A stretch of 61,719 bases of DNA, counting the filler, from a bacterium UBP13_UBA5359 (GTDB lineage Bacteria; UBP13; UBA5359): NCBI GenBank assembly GCA_002410925.1. It is 4 parts of 4 records of this genome, joined end to end, with 100 filler letters (N's around TTAATTAATTAA, not from the genome) between each part and the next. Parts side by side here need not be neighbours in the genome. Positions count along the whole stretch, not along the records: positions 30,846 to 61,719 come from DHPR01000018.1; 3 more parts are not named here. One strand, 5' to 3'. The notes beneath the pieces are model-generated. The model saw only the letters and a program-made list of their open reading frames with translations, did no database searches and had not been told where the DNA came from. Both the position numbers and the translations under genes were made by a program. Of this stretch, positions 1,474 through 59,279 are shown piece after piece (positions within the stretch are counted from its first letter, which is position 1; every line of letters begins with the position of its first letter).

Positions 1474-3264
1474 TTACATCTTTTCAAAGAGCCTGTTCAA
1501 TTCATCTCCCTCTATGGTTTCACGCTCTATCAGAGCTCCGGCTATTCTATCCATGCTCCAGCGATGCCTGATAATTATCTCTTCGGCTATCTTATAGCAG
1601 CTCTCTATAAGGTTACGAACTTCATGGTCTATAGCACTGGCCACCTCGTCGCCGTAATTGCGCTCTTCCATCAGATCACGACCCAAAAAAACCTGCTCTT
1701 GCTTATGTCCCAGAGTCAGCGGCCCCAAAAGATCACTCATACCATATTCCGTTATCATCCGTCGGGCTATTTCAGTCGCCTGCTGTATATCATTTTGAGC
1801 ACCGGTAGTGATTTCATTGAAGATGATCTTTTCAGCCACTCGACCGCCAAGCATGACGGCAATACGATGAGTCAACTCTGTTTTGCTCATCAGGTACCTA
1901 TCCTCCATAGGAAGCTGCATCGTATATCCCAAGGCCAAACCGCGCGGCAGAATGGAGATTTTATGTACCGGATCGGTATCGGGGAGAAGCCAGGCCACCA
2001 TGGCATGGCCGGTTTCATGATAAGCCACTATCTCTTTTTCCCTATCGCTGATTATTCTGCTTTTACGCTCAGGACCGGCCACAACGCGATCTATCGATGC
2101 TTCAAATTGGGCCATGCTTACATTGTGACGGTGCTCCCTGGCAGCCAAAATGGCGGCTTCATTAACCATATTGGCTATATCAGCGCCGGAAAAGCCGGGC
2201 GTACGCCGTGCCAGAAGGGCCAAATTTACATTCTCATCCAACGGTTTTCCACGAACATGCACTTTAAGTATGGCCTCACGGCCGTTGACGTCAGGGTTGT
2301 CGACGGTGACACGGCGATCAAACCGCCCGGGACGTAGCAAGGCCGGATCCAGAATATCGGGACGGTTGGTAGCGGCAAGGACAATGACCTGGGAGTGAGC
2401 CTCAAAGCCATCCATCTCTACCAGCAGCTGATTGAGGGTCTGTTCCCGCTCGTCATGCCCTCCGCCCAGGCCTGCACCTCTTTGGCGCCCGACAGCATCT
2501 ATTTCATCGATAAAGATTATGCAAGGTGCATTCTTCCTGGCCTGAGCAAAGAGATCCCTGACACGGGAAGCGCCCACTCCTACAAACATCTCCACAAAAT
2601 TGGAACCGCTGATAAAAAAGAAAGGCACACCAGCCTCTCCGGCAACAGCTCTGGCCAGCAGTGTTTTACCGGATCCCGGAGGCCCCAGAAGTAAAACTCC
2701 TTTAGGTATGGTAGCCCCCAGGATCTCAAAACGCCGATGATCCCTGAGAAACTCCACCACTTCCTGTAGCTCCTCTTCCGCTTCATCCACCCCGGCTACG
2801 TCACTGAAAGTAACTTTGGGGCGGTTGTCGGTAAGCATCGTTGCTTTACTCTTGCCAAAAGACATCGTTTGATTGCCGTCAGTCTGCGTTTGACGGGAGA
2901 AGATAGCCCACATACCGGCAATAACCAGCACCGGTAACAGCAGGGAGAAGATGGAAAGCCATATGGATATGCCGGCACTGCTCTTTCTGCCATAAACCGT
3001 TACATCTGCCTTCTCCAAACGCTGATAAAGCGATGCATCTTCTACACGATAAGAGCTGAAGAGCGTACCGTCTGATAAGCGACCGGTTATTTCATCCTGT
3101 CCCAGGGTAACATCCTCAACCTTCCCTTCATCCACCAGGCTGCTGAACTTGCTGTAGCTTATCCGAGATATTCCTGCAGACTGCTGATTCAGGTTCGTTA
3201 TCAGAAGAATAAAGAGAAGTATGACAAATCCGTATAACAGTGTCTGACCCAGACATCTACCCAA
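1474..3264 (-). CDS. ftsH: ATP-dependent zinc metalloprotease FtsH
   Basis: Two TM segments, Walker A GPPGSGKT, Walker [36 protein letters not shown] Zn motif. Start moved to TTG 3264 (GAGGA upstream). Confidence 0.96.
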
Positions 3265-3332
3265 GTTCCTCGTCCTCACGTACGTTGAAGTGATGGTATA
3301 AGAATACCCTTGGGAGAGAAATCTTAAACAGG

Positions 3333-3794
3333 TCAGGGATACGACCGCCAAGGCTCTATAACTTCGGTTATCTCAGAAGCAAGTGGCATGCCATAGCGCA
3401 GGCTGTACCATCTAATAGCGGCAAAGGTTAGTATCAAAGCCAGAATGGAAGAGCACACGCCGATATCTTCAGATATACGCCTTCCCAGAGCATAGCCGAT
3501 AAACATTATAAGAAGCGGCAAAAGGTATATGATAGCGGAACCGCGCAGAAGTTGAACCGAGCCGGTTTCCACCTTTACCGTATCTCCCGCCACGGCATGC
3601 AAGGGATTACGGCAAAGCATAGCGGCCGGATCACCAGGGCTGGATTGGCAGAGTCCACAACGGGAACATTCATTATCACGTCGGAACTCCACCAGAGCAA
3701 AATCTCCCTCTACCTTAATAACGGTACCATGCTCTTTCAACTTACCGCTCACCTGCATTCGGGCTTGAATCCGGGCTTTATACCCGACATTCAA
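3333..3794 (-). CDS. RseC/MucC family (SoxR reducing system) membrane protein
   Basis: EHGTVIKVEG start, CSRCGLC motif, NPLHAVAGDTVKVE, IYLLPLL plus two TM helices. True start probably near 3758 or later. Confidence 0.8.
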   Translation of the reverse strand: MNVGYKARIQARMQVSGKLKEHGTVIKVEGDFALVEFRRDNECSRCGLCQSSPGDPAAMLCRNPLHAVAGDTVKVETGSVQLLRGSAIIYLLPLLIMFIGYALGRRISEDIGVCSSILALILTFAAIRWYSLRYGMPLASEITEVIEPWRSYP

Positions 3795-39814: not shown

Positions 39815-39961
39815 CGCACCTCCGCAGGAACCGAAAATTTGCGGCTTTATCTTATCATGGGAAAGGCCAAAGTGTCAAAGCAACGGCTCTTTTCCTATGT
39901 TTGGACAGAACGATTATGGGTAAATATTTCTACAAAGCAACAATACGATTTTGGGGTAAGC

Positions 39962-40384
39962 ATGAGCGTTACCGAAAAGGATAACGTCATAATCTTTATC
40001 TTTCCAAGCAATACATGTTATATCAGTACCATGCGAATATTGCTCGGAGATCTGGCCGAGAAAGAGAATTTCTCCTACCAGGATATTGAAGATATGAAAG
40101 TTGCGGTATCGGAAGCCTGTTCCAATGCCATCCTGCATGGTTACAGTCTCATCAGGCCATTTGTTACCGTAGCTTTCGAGCTTTTGCAGGATAGAATGAT
40201 TATAAAGATCACCGACCACGGACGCGGGCTGACAGCCAAAAGGAAACCGCTGACTGATAAGGGAGAACCGACGGAAAAGGGGCTGGGGTTGGGCATATAT
40301 CTCATGCAGGCTCTCATGGATAAGGTGGAATATTCCGCTCCGGAAGATCAGGGTACTGTTGTTAAGCTTACCAAGATTAAATAG
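39962..40384 (+). CDS. RsbW/SpoIIAB-like anti-sigma factor Ser/Thr kinase (HATPase_c_2)
   Basis: DMKVAVSEACSNAILHG, DHGRG, GLGIYLMQALMD; start moved to ATG 39962. Confidence 0.85.
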   Translation: MSVTEKDNVIIFIFPSNTCYISTMRILLGDLAEKENFSYQDIEDMKVAVSEACSNAILHGYSLIRPFVTVAFELLQDRMIIKITDHGRGLTAKRKPLTDKGEPTEKGLGLGIYLMQALMDKVEYSAPEDQGTVVKLTKIK

Positions 40385-40388
40385 TGCT

Positions 40389-41177
40389 TTAATCCGGCTT
40401 CATCAGCATCTCTAACGCTGAAGCGCACCTGCGGCTAACCGGCAAACGCGTCTTTTGCATATCAAGCATGATTACATCGTAAACGCGGTCCCCCACAGGA
40501 AGTATCTCCTTTATTTTTCTACCATTAACCAGGCAACTGCGACTGATGCGAATAAACCCCAGAGCCTTCCAACTCTCTTCCAGCTCCTGAATGGAGGATT
40601 GCACCATGTGCCTCTCTCCCTTATCCGTATAAGCAAAAACCGTACGATCCTCTGATTGGAAATAGAGCATATCGGAAGGATTAAAAAGCTGCACTCTATC
40701 CTTAAGCTTCAAAGGGATTCTATCATTAAAACAGCCGCCGCCTTTAGCAGGCTGTTCCGTATCAGCGAGGGAATTCTCCCTTCCTCCCTCCTTAAGTATC
40801 TGCCTTTCCGAAACAACCTTTTTCAGCCATTCAACCGCTTTGCGTAACCGCTCTTCATCATAAGGTTTCAAAATATAATCTACCGAATGCAGCTCAAAAG
40901 CGGATACTGCAAATTCATCATAGGCGGTGACAAAAACTATAGCGGGTTCCTCGCCCTTCTCAGAGAGTGTACGCGCCACTGCCAAACCATCCAGATCCGG
41001 CATCTTTACATCAAGAAAGAGAGCCTCCGGCTTCAGCTTCTGTACCATATCTATAGCCTCAAAACCGGAGCCGGCCCGTCCTATGATATCAATGCCGCCG
41101 ATGTCGTCAAGATAATACGTCAGAAGATCCAACGATCTCAAATCATCGTCAACTATTACTGTCCTTATCATCACCAA
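40389..41177 (-). CDS. LytTR family response regulator
   Basis: REC motifs IVDDD, FLDVKMP, FVTAY, DYILKP; LytTR motifs FIRISRSCLVN, LPVSRR. Confidence 0.95.
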   Translation of the reverse strand: MVMIRTVIVDDDLRSLDLLTYYLDDIGGIDIIGRAGSGFEAIDMVQKLKPEALFLDVKMPDLDGLAVARTLSEKGEEPAIVFVTAYDEFAVSAFELHSVDYILKPYDEERLRKAVEWLKKVVSERQILKEGGRENSLADTEQPAKGGGCFNDRIPLKLKDRVQLFNPSDMLYFQSEDRTVFAYTDKGERHMVQSSIQELEESWKALGFIRISRSCLVNGRKIKEILPVGDRVYDVIMLDMQKTRLPVSRRCASALEMLMKPD

Positions 41178-43403
41178 TCAGCACATACTCCTTAGATATT
41201 CCGCCTTTAAAGGCAACCTTATAGTGAACTTGCTTCCTTTGCCGCTTCTGCTTTCAAGTTCAATGCTTCCGTGGTGTTCGCTGATTATCTTATGCGCCAG
41301 CGATAACCCTAAACCGGTGCCATCCTTCTTTGTGGTGAAGAACGGATTGAATATCTTATCTCTGAGATCTATGGGAATACCTTCACCGCTATCGGCGATA
41401 GCAATATACAGCCATCCGTTGCCGGTACCGGCAGAAATGCTTATTTCTCCGCTGTTAGCAGTAGCCTCTACAGCATTTAGAATCACGTTAAGCAATGCGC
41501 GCTGCAAGCGAACAGCATCAACGTTAGCTTCCGGCAATTCGCTATAATCTTTCGACAATCGTATGCCTTTTTCCTTTATTCTAGGTTCAGAAAGCCGGAT
41601 TGTTTCGAAAAGCATAGATTGCATATCCGTCAAGGCCATCCTGCGGCTGCTATCACGAGCAAATTCAAGAAGGCTGGTCGTCAGCTCGTTAAGGTGAATA
41701 GCTTCATTCCGCACAACACTCAGCTGCGGGCTGATATCTCCATTCATCTTCATCGACATGGCGGCATAGCCGTTAATAAGATTGAGTGAGTTACGTATCT
41801 CATGTGATAACCCTGCCGTCATTTCACCTATAGCCGCCAACTTCTCGCGTCGCAGAGCTAAACGTTCCATCTCCTTTATTTCAGTTATATCGTTAAATAC
41901 CAGAATAACCGCGCCGGTCTGCTCACTTTGGGGATTCATAAGCGAGCTGTGGGCGGAAACTATTTTATTGGTTCCCGGCAGCTCGATCTCCCGTCCAAGA
42001 CAGGGTCTTCTCTGTTGCGCATTGGCGATAATATCATTGAAGACCGATAAGACCTTAAAGCCCTCAATATGCGCTCCCTGCGCCCGGCAAATCGCAATAC
42101 CGGTTATCATACTGGCGGCATTGTTAAAGGTAATGATCCCTCCACCCGGATTTACTACCACCACCCCGCTGGTCATACTGGCCAGGATATTCTCATTATA
42201 GCGCTTGACGGAAATTATCTCTGTATAAAAATCCTCCAGCTTGCCGGACATCTCATTAAAAGTGCCTGCCAACTCCGCAATCTCATCCTCGCCCTGCACC
42301 TGTACGCGCTCCTCAAAGCGTCCCATACCTAAAACCTTGATACTGGATACCAATGCCAAAAGAGGCTTGGTAATACTCCGTGCCTGGCTCATGCCCGCCA
42401 TGTAGGTCAACAGGATGCTAAGCACCAGCGTCCATATTGCCAGGCGCCGTATCCTGTAGGCGGCAGCATAGGCTTCTGCCATATTCTGCTGCACCGCCAC
42501 GGTCCATCCCAGACTGGGCATATAAGCATAGGCGTTAAGGGTAGCCGTTCCGGATTCATCAAGAGCTTCATAGGCGCCCCTACCCTTGCCGGCAACACTG
42601 GCGGCCTCAAAGCCTTGCATATGGATCTGCTTCAACACCCGCCTGGTGTCGCGATGAGCTATCAAACAGCCATCCTTGTCCGTCACCAGAGCCCGGCCGG
42701 TATGGCCGAGCTTGATGCTATCGATAAGATTCCACATGTCGCACAAGGTTACTTCCGCCAGAAGCAAACCGGCATTATTTCCTAACCGAGTTATGGGAAC
42801 GGCTATGGTCACACATGGAACCTGGTAACTGTTCATATATACGCTGGATATAGCCTCTTTGCCCTTTAACGCCACTTCAATTATTTCGGCATCCTGGAGG
42901 CTGGTTGCCGATTCATTCAGATTACTAGCGGCTAAAGCCTTACCGCTTGCATCATAAAGTGTCAGGTCATTGAAAGCAGCAAAATGCAAGGAGAGATTGC
43001 GCAGCAGAAGCTCCTGCCGCCATGGATCCATTGGGGATGCGGCTATAACTCCGGCACATCCTCTCAGCATGGATTTGGCCGATTCAACATAACTCTCGAT
43101 ATGCCTGGCCGCCCTTGCAGCCACCTGTATATTGCCGTAAGTAACCGCCTTCTTAACAGTGCGCTGCCCCGTCCAGGTTACCAAAAGGCCTGAAATTAAT
43201 ATAGGAACGCTGGTCAAACAGAGCATGATTATAAGCAGGCGCCGGTGCAGACTCTGTTTTCGGCTGGTGATAAAATCTGTCATACCCATAAGGCCGGCCA
43301 GCTTGAGTCCTGTATTCACAACCAATCGCCAGGCATGCTGAAGATACTGCCCTTTGAGAGATATATCCTCTCCAGATAATTTATGCATCGATAACAGCTC
43401 CAA
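41178..43403 (-). CDS. Sensor histidine kinase (TM-dCache-TM-HAMP-PAS-HisKA-HATPase)
   Basis: Cache motifs LIAH and WTVAV; HAMP DEIAELAGTFNEM; H-box AGLSHEIRNSL; NAVEA, DSGEGI, PFFTTK, GTGLGL. True start probably near 43283. Confidence 0.92.
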   Translation of the reverse strand: MELLSMHKLSGEDISLKGQYLQHAWRLVVNTGLKLAGLMGMTDFITSRKQSLHRRLLIIMLCLTSVPILISGLLVTWTGQRTVKKAVTYGNIQVAARAARHIESYVESAKSMLRGCAGVIAASPMDPWRQELLLRNLSLHFAAFNDLTLYDASGKALAASNLNESATSLQDAEIIEVALKGKEAISSVYMNSYQVPCVTIAVPITRLGNNAGLLLAEVTLCDMWNLIDSIKLGHTGRALVTDKDGCLIAHRDTRRVLKQIHMQGFEAASVAGKGRGAYEALDESGTATLNAYAYMPSLGWTVAVQQNMAEAYAAAYRIRRLAIWTLVLSILLTYMAGMSQARSITKPLLALVSSIKVLGMGRFEERVQVQGEDEIAELAGTFNEMSGKLEDFYTEIISVKRYNENILASMTSGVVVVNPGGGIITFNNAASMITGIAICRAQGAHIEGFKVLSVFNDIIANAQQRRPCLGREIELPGTNKIVSAHSSLMNPQSEQTGAVILVFNDITEIKEMERLALRREKLAAIGEMTAGLSHEIRNSLNLINGYAAMSMKMNGDISPQLSVVRNEAIHLNELTTSLLEFARDSSRRMALTDMQSMLFETIRLSEPRIKEKGIRLSKDYSELPEANVDAVRLQRALLNVILNAVEATANSGEISISAGTGNGWLYIAIADSGEGIPIDLRDKIFNPFFTTKKDGTGLGLSLAHKIISEHHGSIELESRSGKGSKFTIRLPLKAEYLRSMC

Positions 43404-43573: not shown

Positions 43574-45178
43574 TTACTGCTGCTTTGTTTGATACCGCTC
43601 AGGGATATACCATTCCTCTATATTCCAGATTACACCCTGATCGCAGGGGGATATTCCCTTGAAATACCGATTGATACCCACCAGTTCGTTTAGATGGAAA
43701 AGAAATGCTACCGGTAAATCATCGGCCAGCAAACGATGCAGAGCTCTATAGGCATTGCAGCAATCTTCTTCGTTTTTTGCCCGGCGTCCGGCCATAATCA
43801 GCTTATCTGCCTGCAAATTATTGTAGGAACTGAAATTCAAGCCATCGTTTGTTTGCGAAGAATGGAATGTCCTGTATATTACACTAGGGTCAGGAGCAGT
43901 AATGGCCTCAATAAACAGAATATCGAAGTTGCGTGGCATCATATAATTATTGATCAGAACCGAGACATCAAGACAAACTATATTAAGCTTGATTCCAACC
44001 TCAGCAAGTTGTTGCTGTATCAGCAGCGCCGATTTATCCTTGATATCATTGCCTTTATCATAAAGGAGAGTGATTGCTAATTCCCTGCCGTTTTTATCCA
44101 GGATACCATCGCCGTCGGTATCGCCCCAGCCCAGGCTGCACAGCAGCTTCACAGCCTTAGGGGGATTATAGGCCGGCTCTCCTACATGGGGATTATTGGC
44201 CCAGGATGCGGGGGAGTACGGCCCCCGACAGACTGCCCCCTGCCCCAGCAGCGCCTTGTTAACAATCGCCTGACGATCAATGCACATGGATATAGCCTGC
44301 CTCAGACGCAGATTCTGAAAGAGCGGCCGCCTCATATTGAATACCAGCGAGTAGTAATAGGGCCGGCTATAATTGTAGCTTCTCAGGTGGGGATTGCGCT
44401 TGACCCGGTTGAAATCCTCCGCCGTCAGGCCGTAATCCATCCAGTCTATATCTCCGGCCTCCAGCTCAGCCCAGAGGGCGGTCAAGTCCTGATAACGTTT
44501 GAAGATTATCTTATCGATATGCGGCCGCCCGCGAAAGTACTTGTCATTAGCCACCAACATCGCTCTCTTTTCCGGAATAAATGATTCCAGACGATAACGT
44601 CCGGTGCCGACAGGACAAGTGGTAAATATGGGATCATCAAGCTTGCGGCCGGCACAGAGATGAGCCGGTAGAATACCGTAACGCATAGCGTAAATAAAGG
44701 GGGCAAAGGAGGTCTTGAGCTTGAAGACCACCTTGTATGGTCCCTTGCTCTCCACCGAATCGACTTCGCCCAGGTCTGCCGCCCACGCTGAGAAGTTTTT
44801 GGGGTCGAGAATGCTTTTATAGGTAAAGAGAACATCCTTACTGGTCAATTCCCGGCCGTCATGAAAGAGTATGCCCGGCCTTAAAAGAAAGGTCCAGATA
44901 CGTCCATCGGAAGAGACCGACCAGGCGGAGGCCAGGCAGGGTTGGGGGCGGTTATCCCTGTCCAGCCTCACCAGGCCGTCGTAGATGATATCATTGATCC
45001 AGCTACTGACACTCCAGCAAGTTATCACGGGGTTGAAAGGCTCGAAGTCACTGCTGGTGCCTATCACCAGCCGGCCGCCGTCAGGCACCGTATTATGCGA
45101 ATCCTGGCGATTGCATAATAGCACAGCGGCTATTACGGCCGCCACCATCAGAGCAAAGAAATAATTCCGGCACTTCAA
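43574..45178 (-). CDS. Family 5 (OppA/AppA-like) peptide substrate-binding protein, with no adjacent permease
   Basis: Signal peptide, IYDGLV, WTFLLRPGILFHDG, PVGTGRY, LRQAISMCIDR, GWGDTDGDGILDKNG. Confidence 0.9.
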   Translation of the reverse strand: MKCRNYFFALMVAAVIAAVLLCNRQDSHNTVPDGGRLVIGTSSDFEPFNPVITCWSVSSWINDIIYDGLVRLDRDNRPQPCLASAWSVSSDGRIWTFLLRPGILFHDGRELTSKDVLFTYKSILDPKNFSAWAADLGEVDSVESKGPYKVVFKLKTSFAPFIYAMRYGILPAHLCAGRKLDDPIFTTCPVGTGRYRLESFIPEKRAMLVANDKYFRGRPHIDKIIFKRYQDLTALWAELEAGDIDWMDYGLTAEDFNRVKRNPHLRSYNYSRPYYYSLVFNMRRPLFQNLRLRQAISMCIDRQAIVNKALLGQGAVCRGPYSPASWANNPHVGEPAYNPPKAVKLLCSLGWGDTDGDGILDKNGRELAITLLYDKGNDIKDKSALLIQQQLAEVGIKLNIVCLDVSVLINNYMMPRNFDILFIEAITAPDPSVIYRTFHSSQTNDGLNFSSYNNLQADKLIMAGRRAKNEEDCCNAYRALHRLLADDLPVAFLFHLNELVGINRYFKGISPCDQGVIWNIEEWYIPERYQTKQQ

Positions 45179-45195: not shown

Positions 45196-46503
45196 CTACT
45201 CCTCCAGCGCCATTATTTTAACATATTCACGGCCCACTTTGTTAAAAAAACCTTTCTCGCAGGCTACTCCGCGGTAATCTCCCCTCTTGACAAAGGCGGC
45301 GTAGCGGCAGCCACCTCCGCAAATCGGCATAAAATTGCACTGCCGGCACTCCCAGAAGAAGCCGACATTAAGCGCCTCCAGATGGCGGCCGTCAAAGCCG
45401 GTCTGGATATGTCCCACGCAGAACTCATCCCGGCCGGCAAAGGCCTCGCACTTATACATAGCGCCATCGGCATTGATAACCACCGAGGCCTCCCGCAGTG
45501 CATGGCAGGGCCCTATAGCCAGATCGACTACCGTATTAATGCCCCTTTTTCGTGCTTCCCGATGCATTCGGGGAAAGTGCTCTATCGCCTTGCTCTCAGA
45601 GCAGGTCCGGCCATAGCAGCTGCCCTTCCGAGAAGAGCGCAGATATATGGTATCGAGTATGGGTTTAAACCGCATCTGAGCTATCTTACCGCTAAGGCGA
45701 TCCACCCGAAGACGGTCCATCAGCCGAATGACGCTCTCCTGATTATCGTTGGCCAGGTTGACGGTCAGCACCAAATTTACCAGATCGGCTATTGCCGATA
45801 TATTGCTCATAATAGTTTCAAAAGTGCCCTCGCCGTCAAGAAATGGGCGATGCTCATCATGGCAGCGGGCGTCGCCGTCAAGCGTTACCCTTACCTCATG
45901 CAGCCCCAGCTCCCGCCACGCCTCTAGCTGCTCCCGCTGCAGCAATGTACCATTGGTTATCAGTGTGGCGCCAAAGGCTATACCCCTCAAGCTCGTTTCT
46001 TTATGAAGGCGGGTAAGGACCAGCTCTAGCAAATGGGGTACCAGCAGAGCCTCCCCGCCCATAATAATTATCTCCAGTGAGCGTGATCCGGCCTCATCCG
46101 CACTCTTTGCCAGCCACTCCACCGCCCTGCAGCAGGTATCCTCATCCATATGGCTGCTGATATCCGAGCCCTCCTGCACGCAGTAGATGCAGGCCAGGTT
46201 ACAGGCGCCGGTCAGAATGAAGGTGGCGTCATAAGTGCTCTTGTCGCTGACAAAGGCATTGTACTGCTCATCATATAAGGCCAGCTCATCTGCCTCCCTG
46301 GGAACCACCATGCCTATGCTGCAGAGCTGATCGGCCATCTCCCGCTCCTCCGGCCGGACTTCATCGCCGCAGGTCCACTCATACATGCGATCTCTCAATT
46401 CACGCCCCACTACAGCTACCGAGCCGTGCAGGGTATTATAGATCATGACTGAGCCGCTGCGGTCGGGATGACCTTCATAATAGTTGAAGATAGAAGATTT
46501 CAT
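45196..46503 (-). CDS. Radical SAM/SPASM domain peptide maturase
   Basis: N-terminal RRE-like segment (IYNTLHG), CNLACIYC, MGGEALL, TNG, VTLDG; SPASM cysteines C...YKC...CRQC...CGGGC...C. Start at ATG 46503 after GGAGGT. Confidence 0.92.
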   Translation of the reverse strand: MKSSIFNYYEGHPDRSGSVMIYNTLHGSVAVVGRELRDRMYEWTCGDEVRPEEREMADQLCSIGMVVPREADELALYDEQYNAFVSDKSTYDATFILTGACNLACIYCVQEGSDISSHMDEDTCCRAVEWLAKSADEAGSRSLEIIIMGGEALLVPHLLELVLTRLHKETSLRGIAFGATLITNGTLLQREQLEAWRELGLHEVRVTLDGDARCHDEHRPFLDGEGTFETIMSNISAIADLVNLVLTVNLANDNQESVIRLMDRLRVDRLSGKIAQMRFKPILDTIYLRSSRKGSCYGRTCSESKAIEHFPRMHREARKRGINTVVDLAIGPCHALREASVVINADGAMYKCEAFAGRDEFCVGHIQTGFDGRHLEALNVGFFWECRQCNFMPICGGGCRYAAFVKRGDYRGVACEKGFFNKVGREYVKIMALEE

Positions 46504-46566
46504 TGGTAAAGAACCTACCTCCGCTTCAGATAAAGTGAGAATCAGGCGCAAGATGCATCATTTTAA

Positions 46567-46629
46567 TCACCTAAGAATTACACAACCCAAGGGGCCGGGC
46601 TTGCCGGTACGAATAACCGTCAACTTCAT
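46567..46629 (-). CDS. Putative 20-aa RiPP precursor peptide MKLTVIRTGKPGPLGCVILR
   Basis: Missed by the ORF track. Near-perfect RBS GGAAGGAGGTGG before ATG; lies directly upstream of the rSAM/SPASM gene; single Cys near the C-terminus. Confidence 0.75.
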   Translation of the reverse strand: MKLTVIRTGKPGPLGCVILR

Positions 46630-46678
46630 TTTACCACCTCCTTCCCGCTCTTTATTGCTTTAACCTGTAAAAAATATC

Positions 46679-47242
46679 TCAGCTTTCTTCCTGGGGTTTA
46701 TCTTTACGTTGATATATGCGCCTGATCCTCGAGCTGTAAAGCTCCCCAAGCTGAGGGTTGATGTTAACCGTTCCGGGGTCTCCCCTTTCATCCAGGATAA
46801 AATAGTTCTCTTTATTACCGTCAAAGGGATAAAGCCTGGAAAGAGGATTACGACGAATATCCACAATATCATTCTGCCTGTTTCTGACCGATATTATCTC
46901 ATAGCAGGTATCAGGGTTTACCCAAATGGGAAGATCGCGATTCATATAAAGATCGTTAGTGCTATTATCACCACGGCCACTTCTGATCTTTATATTGCCA
47001 TAGGACTCCAGCAATACAGATGGGAAATAGTATTCATCCATTATTCCTATACGCTGCACCATACGCAGCAGCCAATGGGTAATATCAAGGGGGTAAGAAC
47101 AACGGCTCTTGACCTCGATAAACTCTCTGTCAAGGTCTACCCAGCGCCCATGCTCCCGACGGGGGCCGGAGCCATCTATACCTATCGTCACAATCTGTAA
47201 CGGGAAGAGCTCCTTTTCTATCTGCCTTACCCTCTTTTCCAT
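46679..47242 (-). CDS. Lamin tail domain (LTD)-like protein without a signal peptide
   Basis: EFIEVK...LDITHWLLR...YYFPS...IKIRSGRGDNSTNDLYMNR...IW matches the LTD pattern E-Y-V-E-I...VDLTGW...YTFP...TGxG..T..DLYW. Confidence 0.6.
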   Translation of the reverse strand: MEKRVRQIEKELFPLQIVTIGIDGSGPRREHGRWVDLDREFIEVKSRCSYPLDITHWLLRMVQRIGIMDEYYFPSVLLESYGNIKIRSGRGDNSTNDLYMNRDLPIWVNPDTCYEIISVRNRQNDIVDIRRNPLSRLYPFDGNKENYFILDERGDPGTVNINPQLGELYSSRIRRIYQRKDKPQEES

Positions 47243-47340: not shown

Positions 47341-47416
47341 TACAAAAGTGGCCGGTTTTGGGGTACAAATGGCCGGAATTCAGGTACAAGCGGCCGGTTT
47401 TAAGGTACAAGCGGCC
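47341..47416 (-). promoter_or_regulatory. Four direct repeats at exact 21-bp period (minus-strand core GGCCGCTTGTACC), candidate LytTR operator array
   Basis: GGCC cores at 47350, 47371, 47392 and 47413. Two-helical-turn periodicity is typical of LytTR sites, and the core resembles the AlgR box ACCGTTCGTC. Confidence 0.7.
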
Positions 47417-57622: not shown

Positions 57623-58405
57623 ATGGAGCTTACAAAGAGTACAGTTATCGTCACCGGAGCGGGAAGCGGAATAGGCCGTGCCCTGGCTCTGGAATTTGCC
57701 CGCAATGGGGCCAATGTTGTTTGCTGCGGACGCAGAAAGGAGTTGCTGGATGAAACAGCCGCTCTGATCTGTCAGGAGGATGGTGTTGGGCTTGCCGTGC
57801 CTGCAGATATCACCGACAGGGACCAGGTTAGGCATCTTGTAGATACCGCTGTTGCCTCCTTCGGCACGGTGGATATTCTCTTCAACAATGCCGGCAGCTT
57901 CCGATCCATCGCCGCCCTTCATGAAACAGACCCTGAGGTCTGGTGGCAAGACATAACCGTCAACCTCTACGGATCTATGCTGGTAACCAGGGAAGTGCTG
58001 CCGCATATGCTGCAACGCAACCGAGGCATAATTATAAGCATGGATGGAGGACGGCCTGCCGGTGGTACAGGATACGCCTGCGGCAAGGCTGCTCTCATGG
58101 AGATGACACGCTTGCTGGCCAAGGAACTGAAGATACTGAAAAGTTCAGTAATGGTCTTTTCCGCCGGACCCGGGTTTGTTCATACGGAGATGACGGAGCT
58201 ACAGGCAAACACTGAGGCCGGCCGGAAATGGATCCCTTCCACCAAGGAGAGCATTGAAGCAGGCAAAACACGCCGCCCGGAGGATATAGCGCTGGCAACT
58301 ATGCAGCTGGTCCGCCATGCCCGCCCGGAATGGAGCGGCAAGGGTTATTCATCCGATACGGATTTCTCACGCAAGGGGGTCAATCCTTTACTTTTAACAT
58401 CTTGA
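57623..58405 (+). CDS. Short-chain dehydrogenase/reductase
   Basis: TGAGSGIG, NNAG, YACGK, GPGFVHT. Confidence 0.92.
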   Translation: MELTKSTVIVTGAGSGIGRALALEFARNGANVVCCGRRKELLDETAALICQEDGVGLAVPADITDRDQVRHLVDTAVASFGTVDILFNNAGSFRSIAALHETDPEVWWQDITVNLYGSMLVTREVLPHMLQRNRGIIISMDGGRPAGGTGYACGKAALMEMTRLLAKELKILKSSVMVFSAGPGFVHTEMTELQANTEAGRKWIPSTKESIEAGKTRRPEDIALATMQLVRHARPEWSGKGYSSDTDFSRKGVNPLLLTS

Positions 58406-59279
58406 GCTTGCTGATAATACGGCTGACAGATACATAGCTTAACCCAAGATGTTCCGCCACTTCCCTCTGTAGATAGCCGTATTCGCAGCAGGCTCTGTAA
58501 ATCGTCCTGTTTCTGACTGATATATCATCCGCATCAGCAAAAATATCATCTAAACCAGGGCGCAAATTGCCTTTCTGCGCCCTTGCGGGCAATGCCATCT
58601 TCTCGAGATAAGGACGTATCGTTTGGGCATATTTATCACTGCCCAGAATTAGGCCGCCTTTCAGGCTTTTCCAGGGGCTTTCTGCTCCAACACCGTCAAG
58701 GACAAATCGGCAATACGATTGCCGTGCCTCGGTTATTTCAACACCAAACTGGGAGAGAATCCAGACGGTATCTACAAGACCGGTCTCTGCTTCTATACCT
58801 GCCGTCACTCTATAGCTGCTCCACCTCCATTGAGATGGCTCTTTGACTATACCCGCCCGCACCGGGTTCAAGGCTATATACCGGCACACCTCAAGCAGAT
58901 GGTTCTCTTTCTCTACCAGAACGGATTTGAACCTGCCCTGGAATAAATGCCCGCTTATACCGCGTATCCTGTTGAATCTCTGTGCATAACTGCTGTTTAT
59001 TCGTCTCATGCCCTCCGAAAGATTGGCATCAGGCGTCTCCAACAACAGATGGTAATGGTTGCCCATAAGACAGTAAGCATAAATCAGCCAGTTGAAATCC
59101 TGCCGAACATCCGAAACTATATCCAAAAAGGCTTCTCTTTCAGAGTCAGCCAGATATATGGCGTTGCCACCATTGCCTCTGGCCGTCACATGATAGACGG
59201 CATTGGGATATTCCACTCTTAACGATCTAGCCATGACCTTATTATAGCCGACTTATGTTAAAAGTAAAGGATTGACCCC
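58376..59279 (-). mobile_element. RAYT/TnpA-REP element bounded by perfect 25-bp inverted repeats, next to tRNA-Arg
   Basis: GGGGTCAATCCTTTACTTTTAACAT at 58376-58400 and its reverse complement at 59255-59279. Confidence 0.8.
58380..59234 (-). CDS. REP-associated tyrosine transposase (Y1 HUH) with C-terminal HTH
   Basis: YHVTARGN, AYCLMGNHYHLL, GHLFQGRF, RYIALNPVRAG, WRWSSY; C-terminal QREVAEHLGLSYVSVSR. Confidence 0.92.
   Translation of the reverse strand: MARSLRVEYPNAVYHVTARGNGGNAIYLADSEREAFLDIVSDVRQDFNWLIYAYCLMGNHYHLLLETPDANLSEGMRRINSSYAQRFNRIRGISGHLFQGRFKSVLVEKENHLLEVCRYIALNPVRAGIVKEPSQWRWSSYRVTAGIEAETGLVDTVWILSQFGVEITEARQSYCRFVLDGVGAESPWKSLKGGLILGSDKYAQTIRPYLEKMALPARAQKGNLRPGLDDIFADADDISVRNRTIYRACCEYGYLQREVAEHLGLSYVSVSRIISKLKMLKVKD

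Follow-up and report, generated by a model that had tools for sequence, protein, structure and literature searches.

A Probable Short Peptide Gene Ahead of a Radical-SAM Enzyme

The window analyzed here is a stretch of 61,719 nucleotides, joined from four parts of the genome of the bacterium UBP13_UBA5359 (GenBank assembly GCA_002410925.1). On its minus strand, just ahead of a gene for a radical S-adenosylmethionine (SAM) enzyme, lies an unannotated open reading frame (ORF) of 20 codons plus a stop codon (46567..46629, minus strand). Its translation is MKLTVIRTGKPGPLGCVILR, and it appears to be the gene of a precursor peptide for this enzyme. An earlier note on this DNA gave the position and the 20-aa length of the ORF correctly. 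It left unremarked the strand, the family to which the peptide belongs, and the conserved association with a binding protein, a histidine kinase, and a response regulator with repeat elements. Direct reading puts the ORF on the minus strand, with its ATG at 46629-46627 and its TGA at 46569-46567. The Shine-Dalgarno sequence (SD) of the peptide gene, GGAAGGAGGTGG, is read directly at 46634..46645 (minus strand), and its GGAGG core ends 7 nt ahead of the ATG, in keeping with the near-perfect ribosome-binding site that the note had described. Between the stop codon of the peptide gene and the ATG of the enzyme gene is a spacer (46504..46566, minus strand), which contains the enzyme's own SD, GGAGGTAGG. 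An automatic ORF call instead begins the enzyme at a TTG at 46551. All of the 11 enzyme homologs that were aligned begin at the MKSS... methionine, which corresponds to the ATG at 46503, and the spacer is therefore 63 nt long, the distance previously claimed.

The peptide is divided into a leader-like recognition region (residues 1-9), a linker (residues 10-15), the invariant Cys16, and a tail (residues 17-20). A reading of the peptide as a transmembrane segment or lipoprotein was rejected, since the hydrophobic tail is just 4-7 residues long and there is no signal sequence.

The ORF is preserved in two public contigs of metagenome-assembled genomes, L001 and L002, whose enzymes are 92 and 80% identical to that of the window, respectively. 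Both retain the ATG, frame, length, and stop codon of the peptide, with zero indels in the ORF. The two spacers flanking the ORF both carry indels (49/49/47 nt and 63/62/64 nt in the window, L001, and L002). With three sequences in all (n = 3), the peptide codons of the window and L001 differ by 6 synonymous changes and 1 non-synonymous change (T8V). Those of the window and L002 differ by 3 synonymous and 5 non-synonymous changes (T8V, P13I, V17I, I18M, and L19F), and the amino-acid changes of L002 are conservative. Residues 1-7 and Cys16 are constant across the three peptides.

A Family of Enzyme-Adjacent Cysteine Peptides

A scan for relatives of the enzyme, with one genome per species, gave 79 loci. 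The next relatives beyond L001 and L002 are just ~35% identical to the window enzyme. In the related loci, short ORFs with strong ribosome-binding sites adjoin the enzyme gene, mostly just downstream of it. A profile hidden Markov model was made from 24 peptides of distant loci (enzymes ~30-35% identical), with the window, L001, and L002 excluded, and was applied to the small ORFs of 12-60 aa (all starts, six frames), which number 2117 in the window and 29,878 in the 79 loci. The window peptide ranks first among the 2117 (10.4 bits, E 0.073), and the second-ranked ORF has an E of 0.24. Profile matches at E ≤ 0.25 are found in 41 of the 79 loci, every one of them on the strand of the enzyme, and weaker enzyme-adjacent matches occur in L034, L064, L001, and L002 (E 1.8-9.6). 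A search for similar short ORFs beside homologous enzymes had been named as a check of the claim that the ORF is an unannotated precursor for the adjacent enzyme, and the family of enzyme-adjacent peptides found in this way supports the claim. A strict motif, M-[KR]-[ILV]-x-[IV]-[ILV]-[KR]-x-G-x(3,12)-C-x(4,7)-end, which was drawn up post hoc and is thus not independent evidence, is matched by 1 of the 2117 window ORFs and 22 of the 29,878 locus ORFs, all 22 being enzyme-adjacent peptides.

The family alignment comprises 40 peptides over 31 columns. Cys is the sole invariant residue (40/40), and K/R7 and G9 are found in at least 90% of the peptides. The consensus starts with MKxKIIKKG and continues with a basic or polar linker, the Cys, and usually a hydrophobic tail of 5-6 residues, which is mostly aromatic-rich; we refer to it as the KKG-Cys family. 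The N-terminus of the family is MK(I/L/V)x(I/V)(I/V)KKG, and MKLTVIRTG of the window peptide matches the family pattern M-(K/R)-(I/L/V)-x-(I/V)-(I/L/V)-(K/R)-x-G. The tail after the Cys has 4-7 residues in most members (4 after Cys16 in the window), the exceptions being L078 (3) and L032 (11). It is VILR in the window and L001 and IMFR in L002, and in most others, position +2 or +3 is W, F, or Y; an aromatic-rich tail is thus lacking in the window peptide. The earlier note had used the absence of aromatic residues as an argument for a thioether cross-link, and this argument loses force, since W/F/Y-rich tails follow the Cys in most relatives.

Position, length, and SD were counted in 39 relatives (L025, L034, L038, L045, L047, and L064 were left out). 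The peptides are 20-27 aa long, and that of the window is also 20 aa. The peptide gene lies 5-523 nt downstream of the enzyme gene (median 92) in 36 of the 39 relatives, contrary to the previous expectation of an upstream position beside homologous enzymes, and 62-155 nt upstream in the other three (L001, L002, and L032). An exact GGAGG at the same distance as in the window precedes 25 of the 39 genes, and the other 14 have SDs of the GGGGGTGA or AAGGAG types.

None of 10 peptides looked up exactly among ~15 billion predicted proteins was present. NCBIfam gave no family for 15 peptides (that of the window and 14 of its relatives), and Pfam gave none for the window peptide. The lone NCBIfam match, which is insignificant, is that of the N-terminus of one relative's peptide with the model for methanobactin precursors (E 0.14; 11.8 bits, cut-off 24). 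No published account of this peptide family, and no mention of the names "geopeptide" and TIGR04280, which belong to the closest annotated enzyme family (see below), was found in the literature searched, a search that left out subscription journals and bioRxiv supplements. Precursors of peptides that are ribosomally synthesized and modified after translation (RiPPs) encoded beside radical-SAM enzymes with an RRE (RiPP recognition element) and a SPASM domain are a known kind, and the present family is one of that kind that has neither a curated model nor annotation. Genes so small go uncalled, and because of this the substrate family of a widespread enzyme clade has been invisible in annotation. 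Judged by its sequence, the window ORF is a divergent member of this unnamed and unannotated family of 20-27 aa Cys peptides. That it is a genuine member and the partner of the adjoining enzyme seems to us highly probable.

A chance ORF, or an upstream ORF that tunes expression of the enzyme without being its substrate, would also be very short, and its marginal profile similarity and its location upstream of the enzyme, like a regulatory leader, could be read in this way. On such an account it would be hard to see why the amino-acid sequence itself, beyond the mere presence of an ORF, is conserved. The homologous ORF is downstream of the enzyme in 36 of the 39 members, which disfavors a role as a leader ORF. 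The spacer contains no structured RNA or attenuator by Rfam and folding: the 156-nt stretch of 46495-46650, which covers the ORF, the SD, and the spacer, folds no better than shuffled sequences (z = +1.48), and the Rfam scan of the region matched no family above threshold. The specificity of the predicted complex of peptide and enzyme (0.79 against 0.02, described below) is also against it. Taken together, a chance or purely regulatory ORF is very improbable. The only hit of the Rfam scan, to CRISPR-DR36, was dismissed, as it is sub-threshold (17 bits against 38, E 0.96) and lies on the opposite strand within a 187-aa ORF upstream of the peptide gene.

The Enzyme and Its Place Among Peptide Maturases

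The enzyme gene (45196..46503, minus strand) encodes a radical-SAM/SPASM peptide maturase of 435 aa with an N-terminal RRE, which matches PF04055 of Pfam with 52.2 bits. The CX3CX2C motif is present, and none of its three cysteines (Cys101, Cys105, and Cys108) varies across 52 aligned sequences. In the SPASM region, Cys333, 352, 386, 389, and 395 are invariant and Cys399 and Cys415 are found in at least 90% of the 52 sequences, so that the seven-Cys SPASM pattern is complete (Cys333-X13-Gly347-X4-Cys352; Cys386-X2-Cys389-X5-Cys395-X3-Cys399; Cys415). The TIGR04085 SPASM domain model gives 48.2 bits against a cut-off of 27. An AlphaFold2 (AF2) model of the enzyme made with the 52-sequence alignment has a predicted local distance difference test score (pLDDT) of 91.5. 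In the model, three strands (7-11, 18-23, and 28-33) and three helices (34-44, 51-62, and 73-86) make up the N-terminal domain, and this predicted arrangement is the RRE layout. The closest solved protein is CteB, both by sequence (E 4e-16) and as the top match of Foldseek (TM-score 0.68-0.73). Further Foldseek matches are TigE (TM 0.72), anSME (TM ~0.62), and, lower in the list, SkfB.

Among NCBIfam models, the window enzyme scores best with TIGR04280, "geopeptide radical SAM maturase," and its 259.1 bits fall short of the cut-off of 400. For all 12 of the related-locus enzymes tested, TIGR04280 is again the best model and again under its cut-off (242-308 bits). Scores of 579-666 bits are reached by three proteins with the NCBI name of geopeptide maturase, and from this difference the peptide-linked clade is considered an unnamed sister of TIGR04280. 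Thioether makers are among the families that rank next in NCBIfam, namely PapB, QhpD, and the SCIFF maturase: PapB gives 134 bits against 340 and the SCIFF maturase model (TIGR03974) 81.5 against 425, and the anSME model gives 62 bits. A quick tree of 72 enzymes, built by maximum likelihood, places the window and L001 within a supported 57-row clade (SH-aLRT 96), which holds all enzymes linked to KKG-Cys peptides and all nine linked to a second peptide type, CCWPP.

The CCWPP(G/S) peptides are 33-38 aa long and are encoded upstream of the enzyme in a sister clade, mostly of Omnitrophota (L033, L042, L044, L048, L049, L052, L063, L065, and L067; e.g., L044:5794-5910). Two Latescibacterota enzymes within the peptide-linked clade, L015 and L016, are directly followed by a kinase or an NtrC-type regulator, and neither a peptide ORF nor a binding protein was found at these two loci.

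A Predicted Complex and the Likely Chemistry

Structure prediction of the peptide together with the enzyme had been named as another check. The complex was predicted from enzyme and peptide alignments with three 4Fe-4S clusters and SAM, in three runs and with 3 controls. The median score of the three runs is 0.79, against 0.02 for the best control. Of 157 solved complexes, 116 attain the mark, as do 2 of 215 mismatched pairs, and the present score lies outside this calibration, as the partner has fewer than 30 residues and the alignments were our own. The runs share at least 89% of their contacts, with a pLDDT of at least 76 for the partner. The contacts of lowest error are those of peptide residues 3-7 with enzyme residues 27-33, which form the third strand of the N-terminal domain, and with 36, 59-60, and 63. 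In the model, every peptide residue except 11 contacts the enzyme. The interface of the enzyme also includes 109 (beside the SAM-cluster cysteines), 146/148, 182, 205, 280-283, and 301, and further 329-334, 352-354, and 398-402 at the SPASM cysteines. The listed residues between 109 and 402 line the active-site cleft, and the model puts the Cys core there. The suggestion that the MKLTVIR leader suits an RRE thus gains from two sides: it is the most conserved part of the family, and it pairs with an RRE strand in the predicted complex. The leader of CteA, the substrate of CteB, is described as binding the RRE as a beta-strand (PMC8326336).

With regard to the modification, the Cys is the sole invariant residue of the family, which indicates a Cys-centered chemistry. 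The maturases of SCIFF peptides such as CteB, as well as PapB, QhpD, and SkfB, join the Cys sulfur to a carbon of another residue, according to PMC8326336. Since these are the nearest characterized enzymes and the Cys is the only residue kept throughout, our best guess for the product, by analogy and at about even chances, is one Cys thioether that would close a small ring. A link to a backbone C-alpha, of the sactionine type, may be slightly favored, because no acceptor side chain is conserved and the window peptide is devoid of the aromatic residues common in its relatives. Oxidation of the Cys itself in the manner of anSME would be a weaker alternative.

Neighboring Genes and the Products They Might Sense

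Downstream of the enzyme gene, the operon continues with three genes on the same strand. The first (43574..45178, minus strand) encodes a family-5 solute-binding protein of the OppA/DppA/NikA type with a hydrophobic N-terminus (PF00496, 278.5 bits). It is followed by a sensor histidine kinase with dCache, HAMP, PAS, HisKA, and HATPase domains in Pfam (41178..43403, minus strand), and by a response regulator composed of a REC and a LytTR DNA-binding domain (40389..41177, minus strand; PF00072 78 bits, PF04397 70.7 bits). A full-length homolog of this regulator is found in L001 alone. No ABC permease or ATPase gene is beside the binding protein gene, either in the window or in the relatives inspected, and this fits a sensor role of the binding protein better than import.

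The binding protein and the kinase accompany the peptides in most family loci. Among the KKG-Cys loci with room for the count, the binding protein gene is adjacent in 37 of 41 and the kinase gene downstream in 31 of 37; for the CCWPP loci the figures are 8 of 9 and 8 of 8. Enzyme relatives without such peptides have the binding protein in 0 of 19 loci and the kinase in 2 of 14 (the kinase that overlaps the enzyme stop in L015 is uncounted). Some family loci have two or three tandem family-5 binding-protein paralogs after the peptide gene (L018:3586-8643 and L041:5294-8568). By Pfam, the order in L033 and L044 is TonB receptor, binding protein, peptide, radical-SAM enzyme, ABC exporter, kinase, and AraC-type regulator. 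The flanks of the five relatives scanned with Pfam encode an NtrC-type sigma-54 activator, a TonB-dependent receptor, or both.

Antimicrobial RiPPs are known from this enzyme class, which makes several thioether peptides of that activity (PMC8326336). If the present peptide were such a bacteriocin, similar to sactipeptides or ranthipeptides, the two-component system would merely regulate its production in response to another cue. The hydrophobic tail of the peptide and the ABC exporter of the CCWPP sister clade would suit this idea. The window cluster, however, has no immunity, exporter, or protease gene, and the peptides are very short and allow one cross-link at most. Moreover, the binding protein and the kinase are specific to the peptide-bearing clade (37/41 and 31/37 against 0/19 and 2/14), and a receptor for the product fits this specificity better than a general regulator does. 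We therefore regard an antimicrobial peptide as unlikely.

Alternatively, the modified peptide may bind a metal or otherwise be scavenged, in analogy to methanobactin; it would be secreted and recovered by the cell, and the binding protein and kinase would then report its loaded form. A family-5 binding protein and a TonB receptor are also encoded in the methanobactin operon. The best NCBIfam models for the window's binding protein, all of them below cut-off, are nickel or metallophore binders (NikA 183 bits, Opp5A/NikA 153, and CntA 132), TonB-dependent receptors are encoded in relatives' loci (L010, L014, L027, L033, and L044), the lone invariant Cys could bind metal, and one relative's peptide has the weak match to the methanobactin precursor model mentioned above (E 0.14, 11.8 bits against 24). 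That match is not significant, however, and the window cluster is without a TonB receptor. Both here and in the relatives inspected, the binding protein lacks a companion ABC permease or ATPase. In addition, a single thiol is a poor chelator, and the nearest characterized enzymes consume it as a thioether. A metallophore-like role thus appears improbable.

Promoter Elements and Repeats

An array of 21-nt direct repeats is located at 47346..47416, with a unit of approximately GGCCGCTTGTACCTnAAAACC on the minus strand (Tandem Repeats Finder). It consists of 3.4 copies with 80% matches and no indels (score 86) and is the best tandem array in the window by this program. It precedes the 187-aa ORF, with which the operon begins, by ~100 nt. 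In L001 and L002, repeats at an exact 21-nt spacing are found in the same place, and they are better conserved than the sequence on either side. Elsewhere in the window, the repeat motif has one match only, with 2 mismatches. The site of AgrA, a LytTR regulator, consists of 9-bp repeats with a 12-bp spacer, that is, a 21-bp period. By analogy, the array is inferred to be a candidate binding site of the LytTR regulator of the window. According to PMC4227749, AgrA binds direct repeats upstream of the promoters that it activates.

Other members of the family have a different promoter element. Within 400 nt upstream of the enzyme, 28 of 54 loci carry a sigma-54 motif with the -24/-12 elements, [TCA]GG[CT]A[CT]-N5-[TC]TGC, where chance would give 0.023 per 400 nt. 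The window, L001, L002, and the CCWPP loci are without it in this position. The only sigma-54 match near the window cluster, at 46043, is inside the enzyme gene. Scans for sigma-70 promoters (13 against 11.2 expected) and terminators (7 against 6.6 expected) were uninformative. The output module seems to have been swapped several times, among NtrC with a sigma-54 promoter, LytTR with the 21-nt repeats, and an AraC-type regulator. The type of regulator and the promoter element co-vary, while the peptide, the enzyme, the binding protein, and the kinase stay, as is expected if the regulator feeds back on the operon.

A Possible Self-Sensing Circuit

Taken as a whole, these features suggest that the ORF is a real gene for a substrate of the RRE-containing radical-SAM/SPASM enzyme and that the product feeds a self-sensing signal loop, an explanation that we consider more likely than not. 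The strong SD would drive translation of the peptide, as its sequence suggests. MKLTVIR would then, in all likelihood, add as a beta-strand to the third strand of the RRE of the enzyme, as in the complex model. The C-terminal part with Cys16 would enter the cleft that separates the SAM cluster from the SPASM clusters, where the enzyme may abstract a hydrogen from a nearby residue and bond that residue to the Cys sulfur, so that a thioether and a small macrocycle would result; by analogy with the characterized enzymes, this step has perhaps an even chance of being right. The product would exit the cell and be captured by the co-encoded orphan family-5 binding protein, which would signal via the dCache kinase to the LytTR regulator, and the regulator would raise transcription of the operon through the 21-nt repeats. 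In relatives with a TonB-dependent receptor, the product may use it to return to the cell. This last part, an autoinducer-like loop, is read from conserved gene neighborhoods and is put forward tentatively.

Several observations weigh against this explanation. By profile, the window peptide scores marginally (10.4 bits, E 0.073). Among the 29,878 ORFs, the L001 and L002 peptides reach just E 1.8 and 9.6, and unrelated ORFs score likewise from ~10 bits, e.g., 10.3 bits at L065:9923. The similarity is nonetheless convincing, because the top match adjoins the enzyme and, of the 2117 small ORFs of the window, just 9 share the enzyme's strand and are at most 300 nt away from it. The window peptide is also atypical: with 20 aa, it and those of L001 and L002 are the shortest of all, the linker is reduced by 4 residues, the tail has just 4 residues and no aromatic one, and the gene precedes that of the enzyme, the inverse of the usual family order. 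The enzyme is under the curated cut-off of every NCBIfam family, and therefore no chemistry can be transferred to it with confidence. The window and L001 form a long branch (1.29) in the tree, and their exact position is unsure because long branches meet there. The complex score falls outside its calibration, and it may reflect memory of the solved complex of CteB with its leader. Since such a complex, with the leader on the RRE, is already solved, the pass is to be taken as likeness and not as binding. Neither side of the Cys shows a conserved acceptor residue in the 40 peptides. Finally, exporter, protease, immunity, and TonB receptor genes are all absent from the window cluster by Pfam and NCBIfam, and the lack of an exporter and a protease counts against the explanation.

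The proposed circuit would occur in Nitrospirota, Nitrospinota, Thermodesulfobacteriota, Myxococcota, and Omnitrophota, as well as in the lineage of the window. It is conceivable, with rather more doubt than belief on our side, that the 20-27 aa Cys peptides are the signals of an undescribed class of circuits for cell-cell or self communication, made by radical-SAM enzymes. Quorum sensing by peptides is considered uncommon outside Gram-positive bacteria, and we know of no radical-SAM peptide that has been described as constantly accompanied by a binding protein, a kinase, and a regulator. If true, this signaling class would extend peptide quorum sensing to several further phyla. The neighborhood at least gives a testable hypothesis, a ribosomal autoinducer made by a radical-SAM enzyme in phyla with scant known peptide signaling, and the peptide, with 20 aa and one Cys, offers a minimal substrate for working out the chemistry of the sister group of the "geopeptide" maturases.

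Comparison with Known Systems

The TIGR04280 maturases have the same length and the same RRE, radical-SAM, and SPASM layout as the window enzyme, and TIGR04280 is itself uncharacterized (a hypothetical equivalog). Since the window enzyme misses the cut-off (259.1 against 400 bits), it is outside that family. CteB and its substrate CteA (SCIFF, thermocellin) share with the window system the N-terminal RRE, the radical-SAM core, the seven-Cys SPASM, and a Cys donor. SCIFF precursors, however, are ~45 aa long with six Cys, whereas the window precursor has 20 aa and one Cys and is thus not a SCIFF peptide. The ranthipeptide and sactipeptide synthases PapB, QhpD, SkfB, and AlbA serve as a comparison class, from which the window family differs in having no conserved Thr, Asp, or Asn acceptor.

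Production of NxxcA/NxxcB in streptococci is regulated by quorum sensing, in which a separate Rgg/SHP pheromone controls the operon. Unlike in that case, the modified peptide itself would be the likely signal here. The NxxcA/NxxcB product is described as having a single Cys-Asn beta-thioether that forms a small ring (PMC8326336), much like the single thioether proposed for the window peptide.

The proposed logic of the window system resembles that of Agr (AgrD/AgrB/AgrC/AgrA), in which a small Cys peptide is cyclized and sensed by a kinase, with a LytTR read-out on repeats upstream of its own operon (PMC4227749). Among the features of Agr and Com, the window has a REC-LytTR regulator encoded with a kinase and direct repeats upstream of the operon, and it has no processing and export protein of the AgrB or ComA type among the Pfam and NCBIfam matches of the cluster. 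Agr has a polytopic kinase of the AgrC/ComD type, whereas the window has a dCache/HAMP/PAS kinase with an accessory binding protein. Furthermore, the ring of Agr is a thiolactone, whereas cyclization in the window system would be by radical chemistry.

LuxP-LuxQ, TorT-TorS, and HptA-HptS are binding-protein-dependent sensor kinases. Like them, the window has an orphan binding protein next to a sensor kinase without transporter genes. We know of none of these three that senses a modified ribosomal peptide encoded in the same operon.

Other Genes of the Cluster and Related Loci

The first gene after the repeats (46679..47242, minus strand) encodes a protein of 187 aa, a divergent lamin-tail-domain (LTD) protein according to its distant hits with PF00932. 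It has no Pfam or NCBIfam match of its own, and among the related loci it has homologs in L001 and L002 only. One close representative is found among 1.84 billion proteins, and all nine distant matches tested (9/9) carry the PF00932 LTD. An atlas lead has a score of 0.93 with a TM-score of 0.57, and a single-sequence AF2 model, with a pLDDT of 35, is too poor to be used. Directly beyond the regulator gene, a small HATPase_c_2 protein of the anti-sigma-factor kinase type is encoded on the plus strand (39839-40384).

Short ORFs are also seen upstream of enzyme relatives outside the KKG-Cys and CCWPP loci. In Patescibacteria/Saccharibacteria (L060:4109-4198 and L079:5859-5963), these are ORFs of 29-34 aa with a C-terminal ...TRTGN..KD.CGY pattern, possibly another precursor family. 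In Theionarchaea (L069:5839-5946 and L072:3199-3306), a Cys-rich ORF of 35 aa is upstream of two tandem radical-SAM/SPASM genes.

Housekeeping genes surround the window cluster, with his genes on one side and panC and thiC/G/H/E on the other. An ORF for an IS200-like Y1 transposase (58380-59234, minus strand; PF01797) and an FtsH gene (1474-3351, minus strand) are also encoded in the window. The FtsH protein shares 97 and 91% identity with proteins of metagenome-assembled genomes and, after these, ~61% with those of Atribacterota, Firmicutes, and Armatimonadota. The G+C content of the window is 49%.

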